From IMG/VR virus record IMGVR_UViG_3300032332_000069, positions 1-24,088 of that record: a stretch of 24,088 nt of DNA; one strand, 5' to 3'. The notes beneath the pieces are model-generated. The model was not told the origin of the DNA. It did not search any database and worked only from the letters and a program-made list of their open reading frames with translations. The stretch comes from a virus. Taxonomy: Duplodnaviria > Caudoviricetes. Both the position numbers and the translations under genes were made by a program. Positions 14 to 24,088 of this stretch are shown in pieces (position 1 is the first letter of the stretch; every line of letters starts with the position of its first letter).

Positions 14-127
14 ATGAATTGGAAAGAACAAAACAAAGACTACATTAAAGACAGTGTAAGTCTAACAACTGGGATTGTAATTTTTATCATTTGTATTTTA
101 ATTGGCTGCTTAGCCGGAAACCTTTAA
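14..127 (+). CDS. Small membrane protein, 37 aa (MNWKEQNKDYIKDSVSLTTGIVIFIICILIGCLAGNL)
   Basis: Translated by hand; below ORF-track cutoff. Same AACGCTATGAA start context as genes at 138 and 1530. One C-terminal hydrophobic helix. Confidence 0.65.
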   Translation: MNWKEQNKDYIKDSVSLTTGIVIFIICILIGCLAGNL

Positions 128-137
128 ACTCAACGCT

Positions 138-524
138 ATGAAAAAATTCACAAAAGACCAAAATGCAACTATTTTAAAAGCATTAGAAAAGGAAGTAAAC
201 TTTTGCCAATTACAAATGCTAGGTTGTAAGCAAACAAACCTAAAAGCATTGACAGATATTTGGCAAAGCGATATAACCACCTTAAATAAAATGATAGATA
301 TTATAAAAGCAGACAGTTTGAATAATACGGAGATTTTATGCAAGTGGGAAAAAGGATTTTTAGATATAGTTGACATTGATTTAGATTTAACAATAGTTCC
401 TAATGTTGGAGATATTTATTTGCATTTTAATAATGGCAGCTATACTGAATTAGTAGTTAAAAGAAGGCAAATAGTTAAGCACCTTTCTACAACTGCAATT
501 ATTATAACCTTTATAAAAAAATAA
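138..524 (+). CDS. Hypothetical protein, 128 aa
   Basis: ORF with CAACGCTATG start context, tightly packed with neighbours. Confidence 0.7.
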   Translation: MKKFTKDQNATILKALEKEVNFCQLQMLGCKQTNLKALTDIWQSDITTLNKMIDIIKADSLNNTEILCKWEKGFLDIVDIDLDLTIVPNVGDIYLHFNNGSYTELVVKRRQIVKHLSTTAIIITFIKK

Positions 525-526
525 CA

Positions 527-739
527 ATGGCACAGTACAAAAAAACACCAGCGCAATTAATTAAACAATTTATGGAGCAAAAGAACTACACAATAGGCGC
601 AGACCTTATTGAGTTCCTAAATGACGTTGACATTTACTTTGAGCGTGAAATTAAAAACGCTTATAATGCCGGCGATGGCAACGATGGTAGAGGCGAAGCA
701 AACCGTTATTACACATTAATATTTGAAGATAATAAATAA
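527..739 (+). CDS. Hypothetical phage protein, 70 aa
   Basis: ORF starts 2 nt after the previous stop. EREIKNAYNAG...ANRYY motif resembles small early proteins of Bacteroidota phages (recall only). Confidence 0.7.
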   Translation: MAQYKKTPAQLIKQFMEQKNYTIGADLIEFLNDVDIYFEREIKNAYNAGDGNDGRGEANRYYTLIFEDNK

Positions 740-1529: not shown

Positions 1530-2096
1530 ATGAATGAAACAACAAACGAATTTCGCAAAGGCTTAAAACTTTACAAGGCCATTGCAGATTTTCAACAAGA
1601 ATGCCCTGTAATACACAAGGGTACTACAGGACACAATTACACGTATGCTGATTTGCCGGCAATCTTTAAGGTTATTATGCCTTTATTAAAGAAGCATAAA
1701 CTAGGCTTTGTTCAACCCCTTCAGGATGACAAATTGCAAACGATTGTTTTCCACACTGAAACAGGCGAAACAATCAGTAGCGAGGTTACAATACCTCAAG
1801 TCGTATTAAGGGGAATGAATGAATATCAGTCGCTAGGTAGTGCAATAACCTATTATCGCAGGTACTCGATTGCGAGCCTTTTAACTTTAGTAACTGATAA
1901 GGACACGGACGCAGCCGGAGAAAAAGAATACGATTTGCCGGCATATTTAAAAAAGCATAAGAACGCTACTGATTTAACATTGGCAGTTGACTTTTGCGAA
2001 AACGTACAGGAATTAGCCAAGTTACACAGTTTAAACAAAGAATTAATTAACCCAGCTATTCAGGCATTATTTACTTCAAAGAAAAACCACTTATAA
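1530..2096 (+). CDS. erf: ERF-family ssDNA-annealing protein (recombinase)
   Basis: N-terminal YTYADL...LKKHKLGFVQ and the ERF signature QSLGSAITYYRRYSIASLLTLVTDKDTDA. Confidence 0.9.
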   Translation: MNETTNEFRKGLKLYKAIADFQQECPVIHKGTTGHNYTYADLPAIFKVIMPLLKKHKLGFVQPLQDDKLQTIVFHTETGETISSEVTIPQVVLRGMNEYQSLGSAITYYRRYSIASLLTLVTDKDTDAAGEKEYDLPAYLKKHKNATDLTLAVDFCENVQELAKLHSLNKELINPAIQALFTSKKNHL

Positions 2097-2097
2097 A

Positions 2098-2517
2098 ATG
2101 AACACTTTAGCAATTTGGGAAATCGCACCCTCTAAAAGCGAAATAGATACATTGGCTCAAAACGTAGCCAATGAATTATCCGAAGGCACAATAAAAGCCG
2201 AGGACATAGCGGTTAAGATTTCAGTAATGGAAAACTTTACTAAAACATTAAGGGCAAAAAGTGAGGAACACATTATCGACTTCCTAGATAAATGCCCAAA
2301 GGGCAAATACGACCACCTGGGAGCCGCTATAAGCCTTAAAGACACTCAAACGTATGATTATGCTTCCTACTCTCTTAGATGGGCAGAATTACAGGCGCAA
2401 ATCGATATTTTAAAAGCCGAGCAAAAGGAAATAGAAGAAAACGGCAAAAAGTTCGAAAGGGGTGCAATACCTTTGAAATCTTATAAACAATCTTACGTAA
2501 TTACATTAAACAAATAA
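2098..2517 (+). CDS. Hypothetical protein in the recombination module, 139 aa
   Basis: ORF between ERF and the SSB-like gene; helical/coiled-coil character. Confidence 0.75.
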   Translation: MNTLAIWEIAPSKSEIDTLAQNVANELSEGTIKAEDIAVKISVMENFTKTLRAKSEEHIIDFLDKCPKGKYDHLGAAISLKDTQTYDYASYSLRWAELQAQIDILKAEQKEIEENGKKFERGAIPLKSYKQSYVITLNK

Positions 2518-3062: not shown

Positions 3063-3812
3063 ATGTCAAAAGATACATTTTACTTTTCGCACGACTATAA
3101 TAGCCGGAATGATGAAAAGATAAAGTTTCTAATTAGGAAACACGGAATAACTGGGTATGGCTTATTTTGGGTAATCATTGAAGATTTATATAATAATGCG
3201 AACGCATTGCGAACGGATTACGAAGGCATTGCGTATGATTACAGGATTGAATGCGACATAGTAAAATCAGTAATTAATGACTTTAATTTATTTGTATTTG
3301 ATGGCGATACTTTTGGTAGTTTATCAGTGCAAAAACGTTTAGATGAACGAGATAGTAAAAGCGTAAAAGCAAGACAATCAGCTAGTAAGAGATGGACAAA
3401 TGCGAACGCAATGCGAACGCAATGCGATAGCAATGCTATAAAGGAAAGGAAAGGAAAGGAAATAAAGGAAAAGAAAGTAAATAAAGGAAAGGAAATAACT
3501 TACCCTTTTGATAGTGATAATTTTAAAAAATATTGGTCATTATGGGTTGAATTTAAGAAGGAACAATTTAATTTTACTTATAAATCAAATATATCAATTC
3601 AGGCTACGTTAAATGAATTAGTAAAACTTTCTAACGGACAGGAACAAACTGCTATTAAAATTATTGAACAGTCTATTGCTAAAGGATGGCAAGGATTATT
3701 TCAACTAAAAACCGAAACTAATGGAACTAACAACAACTCAAAAATCGCTCCAAAAATTACCGACCAACAGTTACACGAAGCCTTTGTTAAACGCAATAGT
3801 AATTGGAAATAA
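3063..3812 (+). CDS. Replication initiator, DUF4373 (Lin1244/Lin1753-like) N-terminal domain
   Basis: YFSHDYNSRNDEKI...GYGLFWVIIEDLY N-terminus, low-complexity basic linker, and a C-terminal domain ending SIAKGWQGLF. Start moved from 3042 to ATG 3063, downstream of the leader structure. Confidence 0.8.
   Translation: MSKDTFYFSHDYNSRNDEKIKFLIRKHGITGYGLFWVIIEDLYNNANALRTDYEGIAYDYRIECDIVKSVINDFNLFVFDGDTFGSLSVQKRLDERDSKSVKARQSASKRWTNANAMRTQCDSNAIKERKGKEIKEKKVNKGKEITYPFDSDNFKKYWSLWVEFKKEQFNFTYKSNISIQATLNELVKLSNGQEQTAIKIIEQSIAKGWQGLFQLKTETNGTNNNSKIAPKITDQQLHEAFVKRNSNWK
3195..3238 (+). repeat. Degenerate 11-bp tandem repeats (iteron cluster 1)
   Basis: AATGCGAACGC, ATTGCGAACGG, ATTACGAAGGC, ATTGCGTATGA. 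Confidence 0.65.
3399..3499 (+). repeat. Putative replication origin: 11-bp iterons (cluster 2) followed by a purine-rich AAAGG tract
   Basis: AATGCGAACGC x2, AATGCGATAGC, AATGCTATAAA (3399-3442), then (AAAGG)n-like purine tract to about 3499. Lies inside the initiator gene, as in lambda O. Confidence 0.75.
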
Positions 3813-4323
3813 TGGGGCAGTATTTAACGAATTATGCCGGTTTAAAGAAAAAGGCGAACCGTTACCAATGAAAATAATCGAGTATGTACCTGTAAGCGAA
3901 AGGCTTCCGGCATTGGCTAAAATGTACGGAAACGATAAAATTGCAGCCGTATTAAGTAAGGCAATTACTAAATCATTAAATAACTTTAATTTAAGGGTAG
4001 CAATGACACCTGAACAAATTGCTGATTTATCTTATGCTTTAATTGATGAAGCAGAGCAAGACCAGCTAGCTATACAGGATATTTTATTATTCCTTGAAGG
4101 AATGGTTAAAAACAAATACGGCAAAGTTTATGACCGTATGGATATGCCTACTTTTTTCGATATGCTAGAAAAATACAGGGAGCAAAGGCATTTAGACTTT
4201 ATGAACGGCAAAGAAGAAGCACACGCACAATTTAAAGCAATGGGAGATAGTAATCGAACAAGCCAAGATATAGACAAAGAAGCCAACAGGAATGCAATGC
4301 TAAACTATTTAAAAACAAAATAA
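3721..4323 (+). CDS. Replication-associated protein (possibly DUF6633-like; candidate helicase loader)
   Basis: Overlaps the initiator 3' end. KYGKVYDRMD motif recalled from genes that follow initiators in Bacteroidota phages. Function inferred from position only. Confidence 0.55.
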   Translation: MELTTTQKSLQKLPTNSYTKPLLNAIVIGNNGAVFNELCRFKEKGEPLPMKIIEYVPVSERLPALAKMYGNDKIAAVLSKAITKSLNNFNLRVAMTPEQIADLSYALIDEAEQDQLAIQDILLFLEGMVKNKYGKVYDRMDMPTFFDMLEKYREQRHLDFMNGKEEAHAQFKAMGDSNRTSQDIDKEANRNAMLNYLKTK

Positions 4324-4328
4324 AACAT

Positions 4329-4389
4329 TGCCCTCACAAATTATTAATTAACAAAATAAAGGGTGTTGATTAAACGTGGGGGCATTTTT
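4329..4389 (+). terminator. Extended hairpin terminator/attenuator after the replication genes
   Basis: TGCCCTCAC 4329-4337 / GTGGGGGCA 4376-4384; inner stem TTAATTAACA 4344-4353 / TGTTGATTAA 4364-4373; T5 4385-4389. Confidence 0.65.
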
Positions 4390-4394
4390 AAACT

Positions 4395-4640
4395 ATGAGC
4401 AACAAACTATATTACCACATTTGCAAGAAATACCCTGAAATAGAGTACAAAGGAGAAGATTTAAACCTAGAAAATCTTTATACTGAGGAACTAAAAAAGA
4501 GATGGTTAAACACTGTTAAATATCCAACAGTAACCGATATAGTAATTGAATTAAGAATAAGCGAAAGAACTGTATATAGATTAGCAAAGGAAAACAATCT
4601 AGGTTCACGCTGGGTACACCGTAAAAATAATCAACTATGA
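4395..4640 (+). CDS. Small HTH DNA-binding protein
   Basis: VTDIVIELRISERTVYRLAKENNL is a Fis-like HTH pattern. Confidence 0.7.
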   Translation: MSNKLYYHICKKYPEIEYKGEDLNLENLYTEELKKRWLNTVKYPTVTDIVIELRISERTVYRLAKENNLGSRWVHRKNNQL

Positions 4641-4738
4641 ATTTTCTATTAGGCTTTCTATGCGTAATTATATTTACTGCATTATCAAGTTACATTTACG
4701 TATTTAACGATAATAACGATGACAATGAGATATATTAA
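4637..4738 (+). CDS. Small hydrophobic peptide, 33 aa (MNFLLGFLCVIIFTALSSYIYVFNDNNDDNEIY)
   Basis: ATGA overlap with the upstream stop; N-terminal TM-like helix. Confidence 0.55.
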   Translation: MNFLLGFLCVIIFTALSSYIYVFNDNNDDNEIY

Positions 4739-4817
4739 ATTTTTCTTTATTAGCGTTCCTTTAGCTTGTATGCTTTACGGAACTGCAACTATAATTAGAT
4801 TAATAAAAAAAGTATGA
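4719..4817 (+). CDS. Small hydrophobic peptide, 30-32 aa (MTMRYIKFFFISVPLACMLYGTATIIRLIKKV)
   Basis: Translated by hand; its stop overlaps the next ATG (ATGA 4814-4817). Alternative start at 4725. Confidence 0.55.
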   Translation: MTMRYIKFFFISVPLACMLYGTATIIRLIKKV

Positions 4818-4891
4818 ATATTATATTAATAGTTTTAACCTGGGAACTAATTAAAGAAGTTATTAAAAGAATAATTGAAAGACATTTATGA
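4814..4891 (+). CDS. Small peptide, 25 aa (MNIILIVLTWELIKEVIKRIIERHL)
   Basis: ATGA overlaps at both ends (4814-4817 and 4888-4891). Confidence 0.55.
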   Translation: MNIILIVLTWELIKEVIKRIIERHL

Positions 4892-5094
4892 GTGAAATTA
4901 AAGGATTGGAAAATAGCAGACCAATAAAAATGATAGACATTGAAACAAAAAAAGCTACAATATTTAAGTCAATAGCTTACGCAAAAAGGGTTACAGGCTT
5001 AACGGAGTACGGAATACGTGCCGGACTTAACCCAATGCAAAAGAAGCGTTTTGAAGTAAATGGCCGGACAGTTTGTTTTAGAGTAATTAAATAG
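4888..5094 (+). CDS. Stand-alone NUMOD1-like DNA-binding domain protein
   Basis: RPIKMIDIETKKATIFKSIAYAKRVTG resembles the NUMOD1/IENR1 repeat of homing endonucleases. No nuclease domain. Confidence 0.6.
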   Translation: MSEIKGLENSRPIKMIDIETKKATIFKSIAYAKRVTGLTEYGIRAGLNPMQKKRFEVNGRTVCFRVIK

Positions 5095-5107: not shown

Positions 5108-5491
5108 ATGGCATTAATAACTATTCCTAAACTAACTGCAAAGGCTCAAAAGATATTCAATGCTTATATCAGGCAAAGAGATAGCGAAGACGGATATTTT
5201 ACTTGTATTAGTTGCGGACAGGTTAAAGATACTAGCGTTATGGATGCCGGTCACTACGTTCCAGTTAAGGGTAGTTCAGCTTTACGCTTTGATGAGTATA
5301 ACGTAAACGGAGAATGCAAGTCTTGCAATGGCTTCGACCAATTTCACTTAATAGGTTATCGCAGAAACTTGATTGATAAAGTAGGTGAACGCAAGGTTAT
5401 GGAATTAGAGCATCAACACAGGCTAATTAAAAAATGGAGCAGAACTGAATTAAACGAAATAATTGAAACGTATGGCAAAACTAACAAGTAA
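5108..5491 (+). CDS. ninG: NinG/Rap-family recombination endonuclease
   Basis: AQKIFNAYIRQRD, CISCG, DAGHY and LRFDEYNVNGECKSCN motifs. Confidence 0.9.
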   Translation: MALITIPKLTAKAQKIFNAYIRQRDSEDGYFTCISCGQVKDTSVMDAGHYVPVKGSSALRFDEYNVNGECKSCNGFDQFHLIGYRRNLIDKVGERKVMELEHQHRLIKKWSRTELNEIIETYGKTNK

Positions 5492-5594
5492 CGGAAAAAC
5501 AACATTCGGTAAAAGGAAATGTGGTAAGGCTAAAAAGTCTTACAATAAACATAGCCCCAAACCTAAACCATATAAAGGACAAGGAAGATGCTAA
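5472..5594 (+). CDS. Small basic protein, 40 aa (MAKLTSNGKTTFGKRKCGKAKKSYNKHSPKPKPYKGQGRC)
   Basis: Translated by hand; bridges ninG and the MTase. Y(K/R)GQG end recalled from small proteins of aquatic phages. Confidence 0.65.
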   Translation: MAKLTSNGKTTFGKRKCGKAKKSYNKHSPKPKPYKGQGRC

Positions 5595-6748
5595 TAACAC
5601 AAATCAAACCAAACCCAAACAATCCTAGAATAATCAAGGATAATAAGTTTAAGAAGTTAGTAAAGTCAATACAAGACTTTCCGCAAATGCTAGAATTAAG
5701 ACCAATTGTTATAGACGAGAATAATATTGTATTAGGTGGCAATATGAGATTAAAGGCTTGTCAAGAAGCTGGACTTACTGAAGTGCCGGTCGTTCAAGCT
5801 AAAGATTTAACCGAAGAACAAAAGAAAGAATTTATTGTAAAAGATAATGTAGGTTATGGCGAATGGGACTGGGACGATTTAGCTAATAATTGGGATGTAG
5901 AACAATTAACTGAATGGGGATTGGATATTCCAAACTTTGAGCCTGAAATATTAGAGGCTGAAGAAGATGACTTTGCGGTGCCTGACGGTGGAGTTGAAAC
6001 CGATATAGTATTGGGTGATTTATTTGAAATAGGGGAACATAGATTACTTTGTGGCGATAGTACGGATAGCGACCAAGTGGCAAAGTTAATGAACGGACAA
6101 AAGGCTGATATGGTATTTACTGATCCACCATATAAAATAGAAACTGAAGGTGGATGTAAAGGAAGTATAGGACAAGGATTAAAAAAACAAGGTGATAGCA
6201 TTGAATTTATTTCAAATTTTGAACCAACTGAATTTTTACAGGTATTGCCAATAATATTTGATAAAAATAAATTAAACGCTTACATATTTTGCAATAAAGA
6301 ATTATTGCCTGATTATTTGGTTTGGGCTAGGGATAGTGGATATTCTTTTAATGTTTTAATTTGGAAAAAACCAAATGCAATTCCAATTGGCGACTCTCAT
6401 AGACCTGATATAGAATATTTACTTTTATTTAGAAAATCAGCAATTTGGAATAATGGATTGCCGAATGTTAATTATTCAAGATGTTTAGAATTTGGTAGAG
6501 AAAAAGGATTGCACCCTACAATGAAGCCTATTGAATTGATTGCAAATGAAATGAAAATAAGCTCAAATGAAAATAGTTTAGTATTTGATTTCTTTTTAGG
6601 TTCAGGCTCAACAATGGTGGCTTCGCACCAACTTAAACGCAAATGCTACGGTATGGAATTAGACCCTAAATACTGCCAAGTTATAGTTGACCGTATGAAA
6701 AAACTAGACCCTACATTGGTAATCAAGAAGAACGGAGTACCTTTGTAA
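5588..6748 (+). CDS. ParB-like N-terminal domain fused to an N6-adenine/N4-cytosine DNA methyltransferase (beta class)
   Basis: PNPNNPR...GGNMRLKA ParB domain; HRLLCGDST, FTDPPY catalytic motif, HPTMKP, DFFLGSGST SAM-binding motif, GMELDPKY. Confidence 0.93.
   Translation: MLITQIKPNPNNPRIIKDNKFKKLVKSIQDFPQMLELRPIVIDENNIVLGGNMRLKACQEAGLTEVPVVQAKDLTEEQKKEFIVKDNVGYGEWDWDDLANNWDVEQLTEWGLDIPNFEPEILEAEEDDFAVPDGGVETDIVLGDLFEIGEHRLLCGDSTDSDQVAKLMNGQKADMVFTDPPYKIETEGGCKGSIGQGLKKQGDSIEFISNFEPTEFLQVLPIIFDKNKLNAYIFCNKELLPDYLVWARDSGYSFNVLIWKKPNAIPIGDSHRPDIEYLLLFRKSAIWNNGLPNVNYSRCLEFGREKGLHPTMKPIELIANEMKISSNENSLVFDFFLGSGSTMVASHQLKRKCYGMELDPKYCQVIVDRMKKLDPTLVIKKNGVPL
6716..6745 (+). promoter_or_regulatory. 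Bacteroidota-type promoter TTG-N19-TACCTTTG for the terminase genes, within the MTase 3' end
   Basis: TACCTTTG 6738-6745; TTG 6716-6718. Confidence 0.65.
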
Positions 6749-6770: not shown

Positions 6771-7118
6771 ATGGCTAACGAACAAAACTTAATACCAGCA
6801 CAAAAAGGGGAAGTGAGAAACCCAAAGGGTAGAGGTAAGGGAGTGCTAAATTCAAAGACAAGATTATTAAAGTTATTGGAATTAGTTACGACTACTAAAA
6901 ACCCAGTTACAGGCGAAGAAGAAGAGTTTACTATTGCCGAACAATTGGATATGCAAATAATAGCAAAAGCAAGAAAGGGGGATTTAAAGGCATACGAAAT
7001 ATTATTAGACCGATTAGAGGGTAAGCCTAAACAATCGACTGAAGTAGAGGTAAGCGGTGGAATGACAATTAATTGGGAAGAGAAAAAAACATACGTAGCA
7101 AATACAGGTAGCTTATAA
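6771..7118 (+). CDS. terS: Terminase small subunit (putative)
   Basis: KGEVRNPKGRGKG N-terminus and KGDLKAYEILLDRLEGKP. Stop overlaps the terL start. Confidence 0.8.
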   Translation: MANEQNLIPAQKGEVRNPKGRGKGVLNSKTRLLKLLELVTTTKNPVTGEEEEFTIAEQLDMQIIAKARKGDLKAYEILLDRLEGKPKQSTEVEVSGGMTINWEEKKTYVANTGSL

Positions 7119-8428
7119 TGGAACTTTCCATAAAACAAACTATTGCTCTCGATTTACTCGAGGATAAAACAACAAGCGAAATTTTATTCGGTGGTGGTGC
7201 CGGTGGTGGAAAAACTGCCTTGGGTTGCTATTGGCAATTAAAGCAACGTTTAAAATATCCAAATACTAGAGGCTTAATAGGTAGAGCCGTATTAAAGACG
7301 CTCAAAGAAACTACCTTAGTCTCATTCTTCCAGGTGGCAAAGATGCAAGGACTTGAAGCCGGCAAGCACTACAAATACAACGGTCAATCTAGTCAAATAG
7401 AGTTATTTAATGGCTCAACTATTTTATTAAAGGATTTATATTTATATCCGAGTGACCCAAACTTTGACGAATTAGGTTCGTTAGAGATTACGGACGCATT
7501 TATAGACGAAGCAAATCAGGTAGATGACAAGGCTCGTAATATTATTAAATCGAGAATTAGATTTCAGTTAGACCAAAACGACTTAGTGCCTAAGATACTT
7601 TACACTTGCAATCCGGCAAAGAATTGGACTTATTCGGAGTTCTACAAGCCTCAGCAAGACAACACCATTGCAGACAATAAACGCTTTATATCCTCGTTAA
7701 TAGATGACAACCCCTTTATTTCAAAGCACTATAAAGAAAACCTTTTAAGCCTTGACAAAGTAAGTAAGGAACGTTTGCTTTTTGGTAATTGGGAATACTT
7801 ATCCGACCCTGCTCAATTAATAGACTATGATAAAATACTTGACTGCTTTACTAGCGATTATTTACCTGGTGGTACACTTTACATTTCTTGTGACGTTGCT
7901 CGTTTTGGTAGCGATAGCACTGTCATTGGGTTATGGTTTGGCTTTCGTGTTAAACTATTTCAATACAACGGTAAAAGTGTTGTTGAAGTCGCTGAAATCA
8001 TAAAGAAGCTACAAAAGGAATTTCAAGTGCCAACGTCAAATATAGTAGTGGATGAAGACGGAGTAGGTGGTGGAGTGTGCGATATATTAAGGTGCAAAGG
8101 ATTTGTAAATAATAGTTCTCCATTAGAAAACCCAGTAACTAGAACAAAAGAAAACTTTGATAATCTTAAAAGTCAATGCTACTATAAGTTAGCCGAATTA
8201 GTAAACGATAATAAAATTTACATAAATGCAGACGGTAAACAAAAGCAAATGATAATCGAAGAACTAGAACAGGTAAAACAAAAATCAGTTGACAATGACG
8301 GTAAGAAAGGAGTTGCACCAAAAGATAGGGTTAAGGCTGCTATTGGTCGCTCCCCTGACTTTAGCGATTGTTTAGCTATGCGTATGATATTTGAATATAC
8401 TCCAAAATTTGTAGTATCAGTTTATTAG
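7118..8428 (+). CDS. terL: Terminase large subunit
   Basis: Walker A GGGAGGGKT, Walker B FIDEA, TCNP coupling motif, nuclease motifs CDVARFGSD, VVDEDGVG and SPDFSD. Confidence 0.95.
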   Translation: MELSIKQTIALDLLEDKTTSEILFGGGAGGGKTALGCYWQLKQRLKYPNTRGLIGRAVLKTLKETTLVSFFQVAKMQGLEAGKHYKYNGQSSQIELFNGSTILLKDLYLYPSDPNFDELGSLEITDAFIDEANQVDDKARNIIKSRIRFQLDQNDLVPKILYTCNPAKNWTYSEFYKPQQDNTIADNKRFISSLIDDNPFISKHYKENLLSLDKVSKERLLFGNWEYLSDPAQLIDYDKILDCFTSDYLPGGTLYISCDVARFGSDSTVIGLWFGFRVKLFQYNGKSVVEVAEIIKKLQKEFQVPTSNIVVDEDGVGGGVCDILRCKGFVNNSSPLENPVTRTKENFDNLKSQCYYKLAELVNDNKIYINADGKQKQMIIEELEQVKQKSVDNDGKKGVAPKDRVKAAIGRSPDFSDCLAMRMIFEYTPKFVVSVY

Positions 8429-8439
8429 GATAAAATAAG

Positions 8440-8447
8440 TAACTTTG
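8440..8447 (+). promoter_or_regulatory. -7 element TAACTTTG upstream of the portal gene
   Basis: Intergenic TAnnTTTG; no correctly spaced -33 TTTG. Confidence 0.55.
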
Positions 8448-8463
8448 ACTAAATTGTACATAT

Positions 8464-9843: not shown

Positions 9844-9849
9844 GATAAA

Positions 9850-13974: not shown

Positions 13975-13975
13975 T

Positions 13976-15262: not shown

Positions 15263-15264
15263 AA

Positions 15265-15705
15265 ATGGCAGAAACTAAAGTATCAGGTAGAGATTACCTA
15301 TTATTCGCAGACATAGACGGCGATTCAACATTTAAGCCGGTAGCTTGTCTAACTTCAAACTCAATTACTTCTTCATTGAACGTAATTGACGCAACTTCTA
15401 AATGTGGAGACCAATTCCAACCAGGCCCAGCTTACACTCAGTCAATCAAGGCTGATGGTTTTGCAATCGACCAAACAGGAACTCCTTCTAAAGACAGTTA
15501 CAATCAATTGTATTCAGCATTTGTTGCCGGTACTGTATTCGCAATTAAAATGGGCGAAGCTACACCAGTTGCAGGTAACGTTACTTATTCAGGTGATGTT
15601 TTCATTTCAGCATTTGACGTGAACGCAGCTGACAAAGAAGATGTTAAATTTAGTGCGACTTTTACAGTAGCAGTTCCACCGTTAACACAAACAGTAACAG
15701 CTTAA
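15265..15705 (+). CDS. Major tail (tube) protein
   Basis: VACLTSNS...IDATSKCG and YSGDVFISAFDVNA...FSATF; canonical position; biased codons. Confidence 0.85.
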   Translation: MAETKVSGRDYLLFADIDGDSTFKPVACLTSNSITSSLNVIDATSKCGDQFQPGPAYTQSIKADGFAIDQTGTPSKDSYNQLYSAFVAGTVFAIKMGEATPVAGNVTYSGDVFISAFDVNAADKEDVKFSATFTVAVPPLTQTVTA

Positions 15706-15723
15706 TAAAAAACAACAACAACT

Positions 15724-16095
15724 ATGTTCGAACTAAAACTAAACAACAAAACAATCCCTCTAAAGTGGGGTACTTGGGCAATGCGTGAATTTTGCGTAGC
15801 AAATAATATCGGTATAGATAAGTATTTTGAACTATTAGGGAAAACGCAATTTGATTTAGACCTTGTTGTAAAGATGATTTACATAGGGTACAAATCGGCT
15901 TGCGTTAGTAACAAACAAGACGTAGAATATACTGAAAATGATGTTTGTGATTGGATGGACGAAATAGGTGGACTTTTTAATACTGAAGGGCAATTCATTG
16001 AGTTCGTTAAGTATATCATATCGACTACTGTAACGACTGTTCAGGGGACTGTCAAAGAAGAAAAAAAAAAGCCTAATAAAACTAAATTGGGATGA
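15724..16095 (+). CDS. Tail assembly chaperone (gpG-like)
   Basis: Between tail tube and tape measure; A10 tract at 16061-16070 near the 3' end. Confidence 0.8.
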   Translation: MFELKLNNKTIPLKWGTWAMREFCVANNIGIDKYFELLGKTQFDLDLVVKMIYIGYKSACVSNKQDVEYTENDVCDWMDEIGGLFNTEGQFIEFVKYIISTTVTTVQGTVKEEKKKPNKTKLG

Positions 16096-16390
16096 TATTT
16101 TAGTTAAAGCCGCTGAATGCGATATAAGACCCAATGAGTTTTGGGAAATGACTTGGAAGGACTTTTCTATTATTGTAATGGGAAAGGAAAAGAAAGAGTT
16201 AAATGAATGGGCGAGGACTAGAAACCTCGCCTATATTATATACCTAAGTAACACGGCGGAGAAATCCCCTAAATCACTTAGAGCATTTTGGCACATTCCG
16301 TCAATCGATGACGTAGAGATAGAGGAAGAAAAAACAATGTTAACTGATGAACAACTTGCAAGGACTTTAAAATTGTATGGAGTAAACTAA
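16061..16390 (+). CDS. Tail assembly chaperone extension (gpT-like), probably reached by frameshift at A10
   Basis: Frame is open from the A10 tract: SLIKLNWDDILVKAAECDIRPNEFWEMTWKDF... The P.EFW.MT motif begins upstream of the first ATG (16148). Confidence 0.7.
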   Translation, partial: KKKSLIKLNWDDILVKAAECDIRPNEFWEMTWKDFSIIVMGKEKKELNEWARTRNLAYIIYLSNTAEKSPKSLRAFWHIPSIDDVEIEEEKTMLTDEQLARTLKLYGVN

Positions 16391-16396
16391 TAAAAA

Positions 16397-18406
16397 ATGG
16401 CTACGGAAAATTTAGAGATTATTATAGGTGCAAATACGCAAGATTTACAAACCGGCTTAAATCAGGCTTCGCAATCAGTAACCAATTTTGGAAATGCAGT
16501 TAGGGCAAATACAAGGCCAACGGCTGACGCAACAAATGCTTTAGGAAACTTATCAAGAGTTGCTCAGGATGCTCCTTACGGCTTTATGGGTATTGCGAAT
16601 AACTTAAACCCATTATTAGAAAGCTTTCAACGATTAAGCAAAGAAAGTGGTGGTGCAGGTTCAGCATTAAAAGCATTAGTAGGTGGCTTAACTGGGCCTG
16701 CCGGTATTGGTTTAGCTTTGGGTGCCGTATCTTCTTTAGTAGTGGCATTCGGAGATGATATTGCAGGTTGGATAGCAAATACTACTGAATTAGAAAAGGC
16801 ACAAAGACAATTAAGAGCTTCTATAAATGATAGTTTAAAAGGAGTTGAAGCAACGATTGCAAATGACCAAGCTTTAGTTGGTGTTATTAATGATGTTACA
16901 CAATCAACGCAAGCTAGAGAGGCAGCTTTAAAACAATTAAAAGAAGCACATAAAGGTAATGTAGAACTTCAAAAGACTGATATTAATGACGGAGAAAAAT
17001 TAGTTGGAGTTATTGATAGATTATCACAAGCATTAATAAGAAAAGCACAAATTGAAGGAACTGCTAAAATAATAGGGGAAAAATATGCAGAATTAATAAG
17101 ATTACAAACTGCTGATTTAGAAGAGCAAATAGGGGATTTATCAACTGGAAGTAAAATTTATGATTTTTTTGCAGGCTCATTAAAAGGTTTGACAAATAAT
17201 TTAGGTGGTGCAAATACTGCAATTTCATTAAGTACTGACGCTTTAGATAAAAATGAAAAACAAGTATCTAAAACCCAAAAAGTAATTAAATCTTTACAAG
17301 ATAGTTTAAATGAATTAACAAAAGCTTCTTTTGCTGCCGGAGATTACAATGTAACAGGAACAAGCGCTCCAAAAGCAGACAAAAATAAAAAAGAAGATGT
17401 TGATACTTCAGTATTACAAACATTAAAGAAAACACAACAACTATATAAAGATGACGCATATTTATATAAGGAGTATGCTGATAAAATTGTTAACGAAGAA
17501 TTAAGAATAGCATTAGAGAAAGCAAAAATAAATAAAGCAAGTAAGGAAGAGATTGCGCAAATTAACGAACAGGCAAATATTGGCTTAATACAAAATCAAA
17601 TTAATTTAGGTAATTCATTAACTAAATTATTCCAAGCTGCAGATAAGGAATGGTTAAATGAACAACTAAAATCTACTAAAGATAGAATATCAGCTATTCA
17701 AGACCAAATGGATATTGAAGAGAAAATGGCTGATAAGGATTTTGAGAAGAAAAAAGAAGCCGTAAGAAAGGCAATGCTCGAAATCAAAAATTTAATTGAC
17801 ACAAGCTCAAATCCTAAAGTAATTGAATTACTTGGGGACGCTTACGATAAATTAGGTAAAAAATTAAAGTTACTTAATATAGATGAGCAACAAAAGAATG
17901 CAGAATTATTACAAAAGAGATATGAAGATTTTGCGCAAACAATAGCAAATGATGTAACAGGTGCTTTATTTACAATGTATGACGCTATTCAACAAGGCGA
18001 GCCACCGTTAAAAGCATTAGGAGATTATGTAGCTAATTTAGCTAAACAATTTGCAGCTGCAGTTATTCAAGCTACAATATTTAAAGGCTTAATGTCTTTA
18101 TTGAATGTTGCTACTGGTGGTGGTTCAGGTTTCTTTGGTAGCATTTTAGGTGGAGTAAGTAAATTATTAGGTTTTGCAGAAGGTGGAATAGTTTCTCAAC
18201 CTACAATCGCAATGGTTGGAGAGGGTGGACAAAGCGAAGCAATAATGCCATTAAACAAATTAGGCAATATGATGAATAGTACATTTAATGCAGGCGCAAT
18301 GAGTGGTGGTGGTGCAGGAAACGGTCAATTTGTACTAAAAGGCAATGATTTAGTTTTAGCTTTGCAGAGAAGCAATTATTCACTTAATTTAAGACGTGGA
18401 GCATAA
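16397..18406 (+). CDS. Tape measure protein, 669 aa
   Basis: Long helical/coiled-coil protein; QDAPYG..GIANN and C-terminal FAEGGIV...VGEGG.SEAIMPL; follows the chaperones. Confidence 0.9.
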   Translation: MATENLEIIIGANTQDLQTGLNQASQSVTNFGNAVRANTRPTADATNALGNLSRVAQDAPYGFMGIANNLNPLLESFQRLSKESGGAGSALKALVGGLTGPAGIGLALGAVSSLVVAFGDDIAGWIANTTELEKAQRQLRASINDSLKGVEATIANDQALVGVINDVTQSTQAREAALKQLKEAHKGNVELQKTDINDGEKLVGVIDRLSQALIRKAQIEGTAKIIGEKYAELIRLQTADLEEQIGDLSTGSKIYDFFAGSLKGLTNNLGGANTAISLSTDALDKNEKQVSKTQKVIKSLQDSLNELTKASFAAGDYNVTGTSAPKADKNKKEDVDTSVLQTLKKTQQLYKDDAYLYKEYADKIVNEELRIALEKAKINKASKEEIAQINEQANIGLIQNQINLGNSLTKLFQAADKEWLNEQLKSTKDRISAIQDQMDIEEKMADKDFEKKKEAVRKAMLEIKNLIDTSSNPKVIELLGDAYDKLGKKLKLLNIDEQQKNAELLQKRYEDFAQTIANDVTGALFTMYDAIQQGEPPLKALGDYVANLAKQFAAAVIQATIFKGLMSLLNVATGGGSGFFGSILGGVSKLLGFAEGGIVSQPTIAMVGEGGQSEAIMPLNKLGNMMNSTFNAGAMSGGGAGNGQFVLKGNDLVLALQRSNYSLNLRRGA

Positions 18407-20325
18407 TGGCATACCAAAACAAATACAAAGCAACGTTTGCGACTAAAAGTGGTAAAACGGTATATTTATATTTATTAGAGGATGGATATACAGGCGATTT
18501 AATAGAATATCAAGGGGTGCATATTGATTTACAATATTTGCCTACTTCGGATGACCCATTTGAGCCTATTTATGCAAGTCAACTAAATATTATTTTAGAT
18601 ATAACTGATGATATTAATGATATGCCTAATTTGGTTACTTTAAATGACCGAAAATATAACGCACAATTATTTATAGATAGCGATTTAGAATGGCAAGGAT
18701 GGACTTTAAGTGATAGCGTATCAATTAACTATTCAACAGGTAGAAGAGAATTAAGTTTCAATGCAGTTGACGGATTGGCTTTATTAAAAGATATTCCATT
18801 GCCTATTCCTACAAGTCAAAATATAAACACAATAAATAAACTATTGTATTATATAACTACTTCTTTAAACTTAATAGCATTTCCTAGTAACCCAAACTTA
18901 AAAACAGTTTGTTCTTATTATGCACTAGGTATGGAAGATAGAGATGATGACCCAGCTGCAGAGCCGTTTAATCAAACCTATTTACCTTATAGAACTTTTA
19001 TAAAAGATGATGAGTACATATCTTGTTTTGATGTAGTAAATAATATTATTAAGTCTTTTGGTTGCAGATTGTTTCAAGCCGGCGGAAAATGGTGGATTGT
19101 TTCAGTAAATGAATTTGCAAATATAAACGCTTATTATACTGAATATAATTCAGCTATGACGGTAGTAAATAGTGGCACAATAAATACATTAAGTACTATC
19201 GAAGGTTACACAGGAAATACAAGCCAATTATATTTTATTGATAATAGTCAAATAAAACTATTAAGGAAAGGTTATAATAGAGTAGAACAAACGGTGGATG
19301 TTCAAAGCGCAGAGAATTATGTAAGCAATGGCACTTTTAAACCTTATGTAGGCAATGAAGCAGTCAATTGGGATATTGGATACGTTTCCCCTGCAACAGT
19401 AACTTTAATTGATAACCCTGATTATAATTCTGCAACATATAGATTAGTAAGGCCGGGCAGTTCAGGTACGGCTTATGTTGAGATACAAAAAGCAAGTGGT
19501 GGAAATCCGGCTTCAGGCCCTTATATATCAGGTGGAGTTGTTTTAGATATATCTTGGATATTTAGAGGACAAGATTTAGGCACTTCTCCTAGAGCAGTAG
19601 TTTATTTACATATTACGGATGGCGTTAATGATTATTATTGGAATGGTACTGCTTGGGTAAATGGAACAATATCTTATATAAATATTCCGGCTTATACTGG
19701 AGCAAGTGGAGATGATGTAAACGAATATAATTTTAAGACTGCAATAACCCCAATAGCAGGGCAATTATTCTTTAAGATACAAATAGATGCAGGAACAGGA
19801 AACTTTATTGCTATTAGTGATGTTAAAATAGAAACAGTATCGCAAATTTCACAAATCAATTACTTTGGGTATATTAATAATAATAAGCAATATATAAAGC
19901 GAATTGACATTCCGTATGGCTTTGATAGCCCTAATGGTGTTTATCCAACTGAATTAGGTGTTTTAATGAAAGCTGATGGAACGGCTGCAGTATCTTGGTA
20001 CGAGCAAGATGACGCAACAACTTATTCAAGTTTGCTTTTATTGTTAATTCAAAAGTATATGAATATATACGGATTTAACTTAATCAATATAGACTGTAAT
20101 TTATCTAGCTTTGATACTGCAAATGGATATTTAGACGGTGCTAAATTGTTTAAAGCTGATGATACTGACCCAGCGCAAATAAACGTAAGTGAAAATTCAT
20201 ATATGCTAGGCAATAGCACAATTAACTATACAAGTGATGAAAGTCAGGCAACGCTTATACAAATATCAAATGAATTGGTAGAAGCTACGATTGGCAAGAC
20301 TTATATTTACAACACAATTATTTAA
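18406..20325 (+). CDS. Tail tip / baseplate hub-like structural protein, 639 aa
   Basis: Directly after the tape measure gene; beta-rich; WQG...AVDGLALLKDI and IIKSFGCRLFQ..GKWWI motifs. Confidence 0.7.
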   Translation: MAYQNKYKATFATKSGKTVYLYLLEDGYTGDLIEYQGVHIDLQYLPTSDDPFEPIYASQLNIILDITDDINDMPNLVTLNDRKYNAQLFIDSDLEWQGWTLSDSVSINYSTGRRELSFNAVDGLALLKDIPLPIPTSQNINTINKLLYYITTSLNLIAFPSNPNLKTVCSYYALGMEDRDDDPAAEPFNQTYLPYRTFIKDDEYISCFDVVNNIIKSFGCRLFQAGGKWWIVSVNEFANINAYYTEYNSAMTVVNSGTINTLSTIEGYTGNTSQLYFIDNSQIKLLRKGYNRVEQTVDVQSAENYVSNGTFKPYVGNEAVNWDIGYVSPATVTLIDNPDYNSATYRLVRPGSSGTAYVEIQKASGGNPASGPYISGGVVLDISWIFRGQDLGTSPRAVVYLHITDGVNDYYWNGTAWVNGTISYINIPAYTGASGDDVNEYNFKTAITPIAGQLFFKIQIDAGTGNFIAISDVKIETVSQISQINYFGYINNNKQYIKRIDIPYGFDSPNGVYPTELGVLMKADGTAAVSWYEQDDATTYSSLLLLLIQKYMNIYGFNLINIDCNLSSFDTANGYLDGAKLFKADDTDPAQINVSENSYMLGNSTINYTSDESQATLIQISNELVEATIGKTYIYNTII

Positions 20326-20326
20326 G

Positions 20327-20334
20327 TAAATTTG
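20327..20334 (+). promoter_or_regulatory. -7 element TAAATTTG upstream of the second tail-tube-like gene
   Basis: TAAATTTGCA, 4 nt before ATG 20339. Confidence 0.6.
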
Positions 20335-20338
20335 CAAT

Positions 20339-21043
20339 ATGGCAGACAAAGTACAGGGAAAAAATATAATGCTTTATTATCACGAAGCGCCTTCGGAAAC
20401 TTATCCTGATGGTAGGGACATACCTTTTGCGTGTTCAACTAATTGCACGTTTAATGTAAGTATAGACCAAAAAGAAGTTACTTCGCAAACTTCGGCCTGG
20501 TATAGAGAATATAAAATAGACATAGCAAGTTGGACTGTGAACTGTGATGGTTTAGTTACTTTAAACGGTTACGGTTATTTAAACTTTTTAACTATCCAAC
20601 AAGATAGAACTCCAATAAGTATAAAGTTTGTAATTGATAACGGAGCGGACGGTTTAGTGGTAATTAGTGGAACGTGTAATTTAAGCAACTTTCAAATGAA
20701 CGCACCATTTAAGGACATAGCGACTTATTCAGTTAGCTTACAAGGTACAGGCGCTTACGGTACAACAGGAACTTCAGTAAATCCAAGTGGAACGGTAATT
20801 GTAGCCGGTGGAGCAGTTTATTCAAAAGGTTATACGGCTTCAGGAGCAGAAACTACTATAACGTGGTCGGATATGATTGGTAAGACTTGTTTATACGTTT
20901 CTAGGGGTGGTATTGATGTACAAAATATTATAGGAACAGGAACACCAGTTGACGAAGAAGTTAAATGGGTATCAGCGACAGGAATTTTAACGTTTAGTAG
21001 AGCGTTAGAAAGTGGGGAGTATGTAAGGGCATTATTTCAATAG
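20339..21043 (+). CDS. Second tail-tube-like protein (TP901-1 MTP-like fold) with C-terminal extension
   Basis: FACSTNCTF...KEVTS...WYREY...SWTVNCDGL...ISG...NAPFKDIATYSVSLQGTG is a tail tube pattern; about 90 extra C-terminal residues. Confidence 0.7.
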   Translation: MADKVQGKNIMLYYHEAPSETYPDGRDIPFACSTNCTFNVSIDQKEVTSQTSAWYREYKIDIASWTVNCDGLVTLNGYGYLNFLTIQQDRTPISIKFVIDNGADGLVVISGTCNLSNFQMNAPFKDIATYSVSLQGTGAYGTTGTSVNPSGTVIVAGGAVYSKGYTASGAETTITWSDMIGKTCLYVSRGGIDVQNIIGTGTPVDEEVKWVSATGILTFSRALESGEYVRALFQ

Positions 21044-21057
21044 AAAAAATTAGATAA

Positions 21058-23769
21058 ATGAGCAATCAATTAGTTATAACGAGTGGTGCGAAAGTTAGAA
21101 GTTTAGAAGGTGTAATTACAGGAACAACAGGTGTTCTTAATTCATTGCCTATTAACGCTGCAAATGGTATTCCACAATTAGATGTAAACGGTAAAATATT
21201 AGTATCTCAGTTACCAAATTCAGTAATGGAATATAAGGGGACTTGGAATGCAAATACAAACACTCCAACTTTAGTAAACGGTACAGGAAATCAAGGGGAT
21301 GTTTATTTATGTAACGTAGCCGGAACGACTAACTTCGGAGCGGGTCCGATTGCTTTTGTAGTGGGCGACCAGGTTATTTACTCAGGTAGTATTTGGCAAA
21401 GGGCAAGTGGATCGACAGGAACGGTTACAAGTGTTGCGGTTACTGAAAGTGGAGACGCTTTAACAATTACAGGCTCACCGATAACAACAAGTGGAACAAT
21501 TAATATAGGCTTTGCCGGAACTTCTGCTCAATATGTAGCGGGGAACGGTTCGTTAATTACTTTCCCTTCATTAACAGGTTACGTGCCATATACAGGTGCA
21601 ACGGCTGATGTTAATTTAGGAGCATTTGATTTATATACTTCTAAGGTATGGTTATACGACAATCCTAATAGTGCTTACGGTTCAATGGAATTAACTGACG
21701 GAGTTTTACATTTTGAGGACGCTGACGGTCATTCTATGGTTACAATGGAAGATGGATATTTAACGATTGCTAACGCTTCAACTATAAGAGCATTATTAAA
21801 CGTATCGGCTTTAACTGCAAATAGAGATTACGCTTTCCCTAACGCTTCGGGTACTTTGGCTTTAACAAGCGATTTAAGCGGATATGTGCCAACTTCACGA
21901 ACAGTAAGTACAACTAGCCCTTTAAGTGGTGGGGGTGCTTTAAGTAGCAATTTAACGTTATCTATAAGCCAAGCGACTACTTCTACTAATGGTTATTTAA
22001 GTTCAACTGATTGGACAACGTTTAACGGTAAACAAGCACAATTAAACGGAACAGGATTTGTTAAGGCTTCAGGTACTACAATCACTTATGATAATTCAAC
22101 TTATTTAACTACGAGTGCGGCTGCTTCAACTTACGTTCCTTATACAGGTGCTACAACTGATGTACTTTTAGGCAGTTGGGCATTATTTTCTGCAGGGGTT
22201 CAAGTTACTAATGGTGGAACAGGTGTTATAAGTACTGACGGATGGTTAAGTGCAAGTAAGGGTATATTTTTAACTGATACTGTTAGTGGCGGGAATTGGT
22301 CAACAGGAATAACAAATATAACTGCAAGAACTTCAGGACTTTTAATTACTCACAATTTAGGTGGTGGAATATTAAATTTTAATACTTCAACTACTTATAC
22401 TTATAATTTTCCTGCTGCTGATGGCACTTTAGCTTTAACTAGCAATTTATCTTCTTATTTGCCTTTAAGTGGTGGAACTTTAACAGGTGCTTTAAATGGT
22501 ACAAGTGCAGTATTCACTAGTAGTGTAACGGCAACGCAAGGTAACTTTTTTCAAACTGCTTCAAGTGGATTTGCAATAACTTTAAGAAATAGAAATGCAA
22601 ATCAAACTTGGGCGCAAGTTGTAGATGTTAATTCAGTAGATGATAAATATTTTGGTTTATATGATGTAACTAATTCTGCTTATAGAATGGTTGTTACTAA
22701 TGGAGGCAATGTAGGTATAGGAACAACAAGTCCAAGTTATGCTTTAGATGTTAATGGTACAGGAAGATTTACAGGAGCATTGACAGGAGCTGCTGCTACT
22801 TTTAGTGGTAGTGTTACGGCAGGTGCTGGTGCGAATGTTACGGGTTATACAATTTCAAGTGGTGCTAACTATTTGGAAATGGGAACTACAAGCACATCAT
22901 ATGCTATTAACGCACTTAATAGGTCAAGTGGTGTTTATAATTATCCACTTTATATAGATGCACAAAAGTTAATATTAAATAATGGAAGTGGAGGTAATGT
23001 AGGTATAGGAACAAGTTCGCCAACCGAAACATTTACTTTAGCAGGTTCAGCTAGAATAACAGGACAAGCAACTGATTTTAGTGCAGGTACTAGAGGTGTA
23101 AATATTGATGTAATATCTAGCAGTGGCAATGGTAGAATATATATGGTTAACGGAACAGGTACGGCAGGGGATTTACTTTTAGGAACTGCTAATACCGAAA
23201 GAATGCGTATTACAAGTGGTGGTTCATTATTAATAAATACTACCACTGATAATAGTGTTGGTAAATTAGAGGTTAATGGTGCTATATATTCAAAAGGGAG
23301 TAATTCAGTTTTGTATTTTCAAAGTCAAAATTCTTCATCAATATCAGCTTGGTATTCTGCATCAACTCAAACAAGATTATATAATAATGGTTATGGTGTA
23401 ATAGGTTATTTTAATGAAACAAATGGTGTTTATGTTCCATCTTCAGATATTAATAGAAAAAAAGATTTTGAATATTCTAAAATTGGATTAAACGAAGTGT
23501 TGCAATTAAAACCCAAATTGTTTAGAATGAAATTTGAAGATGAAAATGCTCCTAAAACTTTAGGATTTATTGCTCAAGAAGTTAAAGATTTAATTCCACA
23601 AGCATATTCAGAAACAGGAGAGGGAGATGATAAATTTATAGGTTTATCAGATAGACCAATTATAGCAGCTTTAGTAAAAGCAGTTCAAGAAATAGTTGAC
23701 AAATATGATAATAAAATATCAATACTTGAGGCACAAATAGAAGAATTAAAAGCAAAAAATAATGGATAG
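21058..23769 (+). CDS. Tail fibre / receptor-binding protein with C-terminal intramolecular chaperone (peptidase S74)
   Basis: G/T/S-rich repeats (YVPYTGAT x2, GTLALTS x2, GNVGIGT x2); SSDINRKK cleavage motif, GFIAQEV, and LVKAVQE coiled coil. Confidence 0.9.
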   Translation: MSNQLVITSGAKVRSLEGVITGTTGVLNSLPINAANGIPQLDVNGKILVSQLPNSVMEYKGTWNANTNTPTLVNGTGNQGDVYLCNVAGTTNFGAGPIAFVVGDQVIYSGSIWQRASGSTGTVTSVAVTESGDALTITGSPITTSGTINIGFAGTSAQYVAGNGSLITFPSLTGYVPYTGATADVNLGAFDLYTSKVWLYDNPNSAYGSMELTDGVLHFEDADGHSMVTMEDGYLTIANASTIRALLNVSALTANRDYAFPNASGTLALTSDLSGYVPTSRTVSTTSPLSGGGALSSNLTLSISQATTSTNGYLSSTDWTTFNGKQAQLNGTGFVKASGTTITYDNSTYLTTSAAASTYVPYTGATTDVLLGSWALFSAGVQVTNGGTGVISTDGWLSASKGIFLTDTVSGGNWSTGITNITARTSGLLITHNLGGGILNFNTSTTYTYNFPAADGTLALTSNLSSYLPLSGGTLTGALNGTSAVFTSSVTATQGNFFQTASSGFAITLRNRNANQTWAQVVDVNSVDDKYFGLYDVTNSAYRMVVTNGGNVGIGTTSPSYALDVNGTGRFTGALTGAAATFSGSVTAGAGANVTGYTISSGANYLEMGTTSTSYAINALNRSSGVYNYPLYIDAQKLILNNGSGGNVGIGTSSPTETFTLAGSARITGQATDFSAGTRGVNIDVISSSGNGRIYMVNGTGTAGDLLLGTANTERMRITSGGSLLINTTTDNSVGKLEVNGAIYSKGSNSVLYFQSQNSSSISAWYSASTQTRLYNNGYGVIGYFNETNGVYVPSSDINRKKDFEYSKIGLNEVLQLKPKLFRMKFEDENAPKTLGFIAQEVKDLIPQAYSETGEGDDKFIGLSDRPIIAALVKAVQEIVDKYDNKISILEAQIEELKAKNNG

Positions 23770-23830
23770 ATTACTTATAGATTTAACAACGCATAATGGT
23801 AATCTAATAGGAAATTTAAAACAAAATAAT

Positions 23831-24088
23831 ATGACAACTTATCAATGGGTAATTAATGAGCTTTCAACGGCTCCAAGTGAAGATGGCTTAACTGACGTTG
23901 TAAAAGTAGTTCACTATACTAGAACGGCTGAACAATTTGTAGGTGGCGAACCTATATTAGTATCAAGTTACGGAACAATGGGTTGCACTACTCCTTCAAG
24001 TACGGACTTCACGGCTTATCCTGATTTAACCTACGAGCAAGTTTGCGGATGGTTAGATAGTGGCTTAGATGTTCCGGCAATAGACCTA
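23831..24088 (+). CDS. Tail-fibre-associated hypothetical protein, truncated by the window end (MTTYQWVINELSTAPSEDGLTDVVKVVHY...)
   Basis: Open to the end of the window; F..Y.DLT.EQV.GW motif recalled from genes after tail fibres in aquatic phages. An in-frame upstream ATG exists at 23762. Confidence 0.75.
   Translation, partial: MTTYQWVINELSTAPSEDGLTDVVKVVHYTRTAEQFVGGEPILVSSYGTMGCTTPSSTDFTAYPDLTYEQVCGWLDSGLDVPAIDL

Follow-up and report, generated by a model that had tools for sequence, protein, structure and literature searches.

The window analysed here, a stretch of 24,088 nt, is a single 24 kb virus record (IMG/VR IMGVR_UViG_3300032332_000069) that covers part of a tailed phage genome and is strongly enriched in the five-base word GCCGG on both strands. 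The phage genome measures about 30 kb, of which several kb lie outside the window. A stand-alone gene for a DnaA C-terminal domain (1137-1475, domain search) precedes erf, which encodes an ERF-family single-strand annealing protein (1530..2096, plus strand; Pfam PF04404, E 8e-23) and is directly followed by a gene for a 139-amino-acid protein (2098..2517, plus strand). Further along the plus strand are genes for a NinG/Rap-family endonuclease (5108..5491; Pfam PF05766, E 1e-28) and, by domain search, a fusion of ParB with an N6/N4 methyltransferase (5588..6748). The packaging, head and tail genes occupy 6771..24088 on the plus strand and include those for the terminase (7118-8428), portal, prohead protease, capsid (12270-13358) and tail; domain searches indicate an HK97-type head and place a DUF5856 gene (9850-10212) between the portal and head genes. 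The nearest cultured terminases are those of Flavobacterium phage 11b (54%) and Cellulophaga phage phi10:1 (51%). Raw GCCGG/CCGGC counts in cultured relatives were 0 in 36 kb for 11b, 2 in 50 kb for phi10:1 and 15 in 39 kb for phi12:1.

By exact count the window contains 42 CCGG sites, 41 of which are GCCGG and/or CCGGC and are distributed over its whole length (113..24078). GCCGG occurs 32 times on the plus strand and CCGGC 17 times, with eight sites forming the palindrome GCCGGC and nine being minus-strand only. The sole CCGG lacking a 5' G on either strand is TCCGGT at 15005..15010. CCAG (24) and CTGG (23) total 47, GCCAG is absent, and CTGGC is found once on the plus strand (12793..12797). 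The hand counts of a preliminary description, made from the sequence alone, agree exactly with these numbers, and its single CTGGC also stood, although the start is 12793 rather than 12794. The density of sites is 1.3 and 0.7 per kb on the two strands, with mean gaps of 690 nt on the plus and 1463 nt on the minus strand. The excess reported in that description is real, but it had assumed an expectation of about three per strand, while our estimate is about five, which makes the excess 4 to 5 fold (4.2-fold and 3.0-fold on the individual strands).

Neither dinucleotide nor codon usage reproduces these counts. In 100 dinucleotide shuffles the mean was 11.25 strand-sites (maximum 25) against 49 observed, and none of the shuffles reached 49. 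Under synonymous-codon shuffles, GCCGG was the top pentamer, with 48 observed in genes versus 9.6 (z 12.7), while GCCAG/CTGGC was seen once versus 19.0 expected (z -4.8). The palindrome GCCGGC is found 8 times versus 0.5 in the window and 12 times versus 0.8 in contig L114 of a related phage, an excess close to the product of two one-strand effects. As previously described, the word occurs in all three reading frames, with 22 of the 41 coding sites read as NCC-GGN, 16 as CCG-G and three as NNC-CGG; most occurrences fall at silent positions. The last three (3103, 3836 and 5063, within 3103..5067 on the plus strand) read xGC-CGG with CGG as an arginine codon, the same frame is used in relatives, and no silent CTGG or CCAG precursor is possible for it. 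WCCGGW occurs once versus about eight expected. The excess is thus restricted to G-flanked instances of CCGG at near one per kb, as in highly iterated palindromes (HIP), and it is an asymmetric-word excess beyond codon and Markov nulls, as for Chi, which in B. subtilis is a pentamer too. When a longer motif was sought in the flanks of 609 GCCGG sites, no fixed base was found and only a following G was avoided.

Many other words are depleted in the window. Relative to codon shuffles (observed/expected), these include the pentamers ACAGA (3/46), ACAGC (1/34), TCAGA (3/30), CCAGA (0/21) and GAATC (2/22) and the tetramers GATC (3/46) and CATG (0/33). More than twelve pentamers are depleted as much as GCCAG or more, so its loss is not special; pooled, GCCAG/CTGGC stands at 0.27 of expectation in CCGG-rich relatives and is low (0.59) in CCGG-free ones as well. 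The proposed link between the loss of GCCAG/CTGGC and the gain of GCCGG was accordingly abandoned. Among side observations on avoidance, GAATC/GATTC is found 2 times versus 22, ACAGA, TCAGA and CCAGA are near zero while GCAGA is normal, ACGCC occurs twice, and the codon CTG is used once among 679 leucines in the window. The set of avoided words varies between phage lineages. Rich contigs such as L198, L199, L201, L127-L129 and L022 have almost no CCAG/CTGG in any frame, apart from CCWGG in some lineages, and this near-absence, seen without a gain of CCGG in contig L022, suggests a system acting on a four-base asymmetric word.

We built a null that keeps the protein and codon usage and penalises 86 depleted pentamers, GCTGG and CTGGC included; it covers contiguous pentamers only. 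It yields 13.9 GCCGG (maximum 25.5) versus 44 observed in the window and 14.2 versus 50 in contig L114. The same null largely reproduces ACAGG (60.5 versus 67) and CCACC (46.9 versus 52), and it places GCAGG at 24 against 46, which indicates that the gain of GCCGG is drawn largely from a transversion neighbour. Passive escape, in which many restriction sites are avoided and GCC-GG and CCG-GC are the leftover codon pairs, does account through the 86 depleted words for the ACAGG and GGTGG/CCACC excess, and avoidance of GCTGT/ACAGC lifts GCCGT about twofold, but as a source of GCCGG it is refuted for contiguous pentamers by the fitted null and is very improbable overall, since the arginine codon AGA is freely used after xGC (192/367) and nothing forces CGG. 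The preliminary proposal that a DNA-processing system targeting the word left this pattern is supported, as it survives the codon, dinucleotide and multi-word-avoidance nulls alike.

Comparison of the relatives shows how the sites arise. Among 47 distinct one-base partners of GCCGG in relatives of at least 85% identity, GCAGG (16), GCTGG (11), GCCTG (8) and ACCGG (6) prevail, followed by GCGGG (3) and by GCCGA, GCCAG and TCCGG (one each); 28 of the 47 are transversion partners. In rich phages, 46 of 367 arginine codons after xGC are CGG versus about 1% elsewhere. Counted by alignment column, CGG after xGC occurs in 10/69 versus 15/791 elsewhere, and at least 13 of 15 xGC-CGG columns are dominated by a conserved arginine. 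A third-position G is found in 102 of 126 Lys, Glu and Gln codons that precede CCG-G[AT] versus 384 of 806 that precede CC[AT]. GCCGG is raised 4-5 fold whether GCTGG is drained (0/16 in L128) or not (30/36 in L114, 17/16 in L078). The excess is a property of the pentamer itself, in every frame, with gains fed by several neighbour words, transversions included. We conclude that the feature is real: a single word has been gained, which neither avoidance nor Vsr repair alone accounts for.

Contigs from four scans for relatives were merged into a set of 233 (2.55 Mb), which contains the window itself and L231, identical to the window over 9.4 kb. These were classified as rich (at least 0.7 CCGG per kb; 71 contigs), free (below 0.15; 145 contigs) or intermediate (17 contigs). 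Compared with codon shuffles, the pooled rich contigs contain 1625 CCGG versus 723 expected and 1258 GCCGG versus 348, and GCCGGA/TCCGGC stands at 481/122. In the free contigs only 23 CCGG remain of 667 expected, and CGCG, GCGC, GGCC and GATC are avoided more strongly than in rich contigs. All GCNNGC words except GCCGGC are avoided in both groups alike. In a quickly built terminase tree with 82 rows, at least eight changes of the rich label are needed, four of them forced by strongly supported branches. Contig L134, otherwise nearly free, has six of its seven CCGG sites in its first 800 bases (108-761) and is possibly a mosaic of rich and free segments. At 12185-12189, inside the prohead protease gene of the window, a G followed by the rare codon CCG is conserved in 38/38 aligned relatives, 23 of which are CCGG-free and read GCCGA there; this site, 80 nt before the capsid gene, is possibly a nucleotide-level element.

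The state of a contig follows the gene module beside erf, its first gene, better than it follows the terminase. Of 23 rich contigs that extend across this region, 22 have the 139-amino-acid gene and none has a small Cys-rich gene, which is present in 15 of 19 free contigs; many contigs in this comparison were fetched using the 139-amino-acid gene. Most free contigs have two or three small genes in place of the latter, for instance a pair encoding a 79-amino-acid protein and a 61-amino-acid Cys-rich protein with an acidic tail (L012:4690-5122), for which no family or fold match was found. In an erf-based scan of 73 loci with downstream sequence, 15 rich loci carry the 139-amino-acid gene and none of these the Cys-rich gene, the small-gene pair is present in 39 free loci, and another 19 loci, mostly of distant erf types, fit neither pattern. 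Since all 15 rich loci were already known, the new loci test the free side only. Three contigs (L012, L020 and L488) have terminases 92-96% identical to that of the window, the other module after erf and no CCGG. This relation is a correlation, and the module could mark a host switch.

A phage-encoded enzyme, be it a methylase of the phage or a protein involved in replication or packaging, might use or protect GCCGG. That the CCGG state tracks a phage gene module is in its favour, as are the several kb of the genome beyond the window. Nevertheless, the long methylase-bearing form of the ParB fusion occurs in 14/35 rich versus 18/46 free contigs and an accessory C5 methylase in seven rich, three free and one intermediate, and neither tracks the state. 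Two near-complete rich contigs (L144 and L014) also lack the C5 methylase cluster. The 139-amino-acid protein had no Pfam or PHROG match; its predicted structure (predicted local distance difference test score 86.9) consists of long helices and a short beta hairpin, with no apparent enzyme fold in the model, no Foldseek match and a best VIA-align Z of 4.2, a viral fold library lying outside the search. We consider a phage enzyme improbable as the cause.

The preliminary description had also suggested very-short-patch repair by a Vsr-like enzyme converting CTGGC to CCGGC. This is not supported, since only 16 of the 41 coding sites could have arisen from CTGGC/GCCAG without an amino-acid change, GCCAG makes up one of the 47 one-base differences and 28 partners require transversions. 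In a widened form, Vsr and an HpaII-type methylase would turn CTGG to CCGG, with avoidance of WCCGGW and CCSGG trimming the product to GCCGG. Chitinophagaceae, the likely host family, do contain cassettes with a true Vsr signature. Of 61 Chitinophagaceae genomes, 20 contain vsr, and of 301 Bacteroidota genomes, seven contain RE_HpaII; one vsr adjoins a C5 methylase 75-77% identical to methylases beside RE_HpaII genes. An HpaII-type methylase (at least 67% identity) was found in six of 201 Chitinophagaceae genomes, four with vsr alongside. In these four, CCGG is at 2.2, 1.55, 1.26 and 1.5 and CTGG at 0.42, 0.32, 0.39 and 0.67 of expectation, while the two without vsr have CCGG at 0.40 and 0.44 and CTGG at 0.85 in both (20-62 kb sampled per genome). 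The cassettes lie in L093/L378 (G011), L381 (G436), L382 (G371) and L383 (G365), and the methylases without vsr in L379 (G366) and L380 (G485). Several genomes in which no such cassette was found are also CCGG-rich.

The signature of the vsr-bearing genomes differs from that of the phages. These genomes drain T in all flanking contexts, without preference for G, and show no rise of CGG after xGC. Threonine codons before GG[AT] end in C at 0.50 in vsr-bearing genomes versus 0.15 in rich phages. The non-silent NNC-TGG is spared in the former (0.32 versus 0.29) but lost in the latter (0.08 versus 0.34), where Vsr would drain silent frames only. Rich phages have CCAG/CTGG at 0.31 of expectation, as this repair would produce; DCTGG, however, is lost in every frame, non-convertible instances included, with CCTGG spared, which reads as separate selection against DCTGG. 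Moreover, L114 and L078 are rich without drainage of GCTGG.

Because polarisation by parsimony left each class with too few events, likelihood fits were used instead, on 209 fourfold sites and gene trees of rich phages, with recombination and lineage differences outside the model. The best one-parameter model is a lone T>C term (log-likelihood -1391.6 versus -1430.1 for selection on C), which stays significant beside selection terms and leaves room for some Vsr-like flux. The fit improves greatly once gains from every base are allowed. In the free-rate fit, gains relative to background were 6.0-fold for A>C, 7.8-fold for T>C and 1.6-fold for G>C, and losses 0.87, 0.90 and 0.41. The A>C rate and the transversion partners do not conform to a course of T>C changes only. 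The Akaike information criterion (AIC) was 2745 for a gain-biased model, 2750 for selection with a free rate scale and 2785 for Vsr alone. Vsr is rejected as the sole cause, and even in its widened form it is an unlikely explanation, but it may contribute to the pattern. T:G repair at the outer C was also considered and rejected, as there is no corresponding drain (GTCGG at 0.95 and GCCGA at 1.34 of expectation).

A methylation-directed repair ratchet is a less remote alternative, though we still regard it as doubtful. As proposed for cyanobacterial HIP, a host methylase would modify CCGG at its outer C, a preceding G would complete a G-methyl-C signal, and any new site would then be fixed by mismatch repair without benefit to the phage. 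The paper that sets out this model (Elhai, PMC4390886) predicts about one site per kb, comparable to the 1.3 and 0.7 per kb in the window, and the rich-phage figures for its classes of words (GCCGGC, GCCGGT, ACCGGC, ACCGGT) are 577/127, 81/27 and 78/93. Gains raised 4-6 fold with losses near background point in the same direction, it is precisely the core, CCGG, that free lineages have purged, and a CCGG excess in Helicobacter is called unexplained in PMC4687349. The fits do not separate selection from the ratchet, as their AIC values differ little and rates are likewise inflated in control contexts (scales 0.94-2.55). The ratchet requires methylation of the outer C, but the methylases found in the candidate family either adjoin RE_HpaII genes or share 67-77% identity with methylases that do, a specificity judged from their neighbours. 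M.HpaII itself is an inner-C methylase. Strict avoidance of GCNNGC or GGCC, where it occurs, extends to GCCGGC (0-2 per contig) and GGCCGG (0), which argues against dependable outer-C methylation and also against the explanation that we favour. In addition, the ratchet model is still a hypothesis and offers no reason for the link to the erf module, and no chromosome with the GCCGG signature of the phage was seen in the sampled stretches of about 65 genomes, in which the host was not knowingly included.

We tentatively prefer, as the leading candidate but with well short of full confidence, selection for a protective word read by the host, either Chi-like or a methyl mark; this unites the two other options of the preliminary description, a Chi-like site and a self mark. 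A host nuclease or defence system would read GCCGG, bare or methylated, as a signal to stop cutting, and selection would retain the word much as Chi shields lambdoid phages that lack a RecBCD inhibitor. The CCGG-free lineages may face a restriction enzyme of the HpaII/MspI type, or may carry an inhibitor that cancels the benefit, and they would purge the CCGG palindrome like other avoided four-base palindromes. A more specific version is rather unlikely. In it, a Bacteroidota host nuclease would recognise GCCGG as its Chi-equivalent or as a self mark, and the phage family would change between two strategies by exchanging the genes after erf, such that lineages with the 139-amino-acid gene write the word about twice per kb and those with the Cys-rich, acidic-tailed pair inhibit the nuclease and purge CCGG. 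No gene of the erf-adjacent module matched a known inhibitor family.

Several observations weigh against selection for a protective word, besides the missing chromosomal signature and the unspared GCCGGC. Loss rates are near background where steady selection predicts about one third, and the gain-biased model fits slightly better. Sites are randomly spaced (coefficient of variation of gaps about 1), unlike the clustering in Bobay et al., and free lineages lose all CCGG and not GCCGG alone. The module link is confounded with descent, and because the contigs are related, pooled counts overstate independence. Fourteen contigs with the 139-amino-acid gene have less than 0.7 CCGG per kb, L035 is rich although it lacks this gene, and L039 lacks the Cys-rich gene yet is free; a search with the Cys-rich gene brought up 18 loci, 11 of them free, six intermediate and one rich. 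A family-wide Chi should not be depleted, yet GCCGG is depleted in low-GC Chitinophagaceae (5/28 in G364, 26/52 in G366, 10/36 in G021 and 14/38 in G367). Genome G405 shows no strand skew (149/106 versus 133/85) on a weak replichore call, and the best case, G242, has GCCGG at only 81/41 and no skew in five stretches. The G242 chromosome (L469, L474-L477) is 33% GC, with GCCGG as its top pentamer, mostly as GCCGGC and GCCGGG, and normal CTGG. No C5 methylase was found in G242, and its genus yielded only a 37% terminase. Whole-genome pattern counts served only for picking genomes, as the reversed control contains GGCC.

The nearest cultured terminases, a homolog of the 2098-2517 gene in a Sediminibacterium metagenome-assembled genome (MAG) and terminase relatives in a Taibaiella MAG and other Chitinophagaceae together point to a Bacteroidota host, probably within Chitinophagaceae as judged from these sequence similarities. 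A terminase scan of GTDB gave three loci, probably binned phage contigs or prophages. Among sequencing runs, one contained the full sequence and is possibly its source, and the others contained small shares. In a DNA search of 401 Chitinophagaceae genomes, most of the matches among the 34 listed were short and weak.

As reported by Bobay, Touchon and Rocha 2013 (PMC3784561), lambdoid phages with a recombinase but no inhibitor over-represent Chi (median observed/expected 2.5) and those with an inhibitor avoid it, so that inhibitor genes set two Chi states. Here too, an asymmetric word is over-represented or avoided among related phages, the state is linked to recombination-module genes, and the phage has Erf and NinG. 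Unlike lambdoid Chi as presented in that text, the word is a pentamer built around a restriction palindrome and is enriched on both strands without clustering; candidate genomes showed no host excess or skew, free lineages drop the whole palindrome, and no known inhibitor family was matched. In Oscillatoria PCC 10802, GCCGGC, GCCGGT and ACCGGC are over-represented and ACCGGT is not, for which a repair ratchet was proposed (Elhai 2015, PMC4390886). The phages resemble this alternative HIP, rCCGGy, in gaining G-flanked CCGG but not ACCGGT, at about one site per kb and from several neighbours. They differ from the HIP described there in that the carrier is a phage and not a chromosome, GCCGGA/TCCGGC falls outside rCCGGy and no cognate outer-C methylase was found in the candidate family.

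Other known systems correspond less closely. PMC12907096 summarises the Vsr mechanism and reports first-C methylation of YGCCGGCR in Caulobacter. Low CTGG together with high CCGG in rich phages resembles Dcm/Vsr repair as outlined there, a signature shared by the Chitinophagaceae cassettes, but the phage gains are G-specific, include transversions and arginine-frame sites and occur without drainage of the precursor. Restriction-site avoidance, as treated by Rusinov et al. 2015 (PMC4687349), covers the CCGG-free state and the many depleted words, with CCGG a known outlier for excess, but avoidance gives no excess of GCCGG. The Helicobacter excess left unexplained there is about 1.4-1.5 fold, with no G preference mentioned in that text. 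The phosphorothioate/BREX-4 motifs in the part of PMC12914056 consulted (CTC-type) do not match GCCGG, and that of PMC6329791 held no matching motif. A literature search, with most subscription journals outside its coverage, returned no report of a Bacteroidota Chi or of a phage GCCGG excess.

As a side result, the presence of vsr beside an HpaII-type methylase goes with loss of CTGG and gain of CCGG (4/4 with vsr, 0/2 without), and this comparison within Chitinophagaceae tests the Vsr footprint outside E. coli on a small, natural sample. Avoided sites are what phage genomes are usually examined for, and a site that is gained is a pointer to host machinery which writes or rewards it. Because one phage family holds both states and has switched between them repeatedly, the cause can be tested by comparison. 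If the reading of GCCGG as a Chi-equivalent countered by an inhibitor is true, it would provide a recognition word for Bacteroidota, where the literature search found none, as well as a new inhibitor family.

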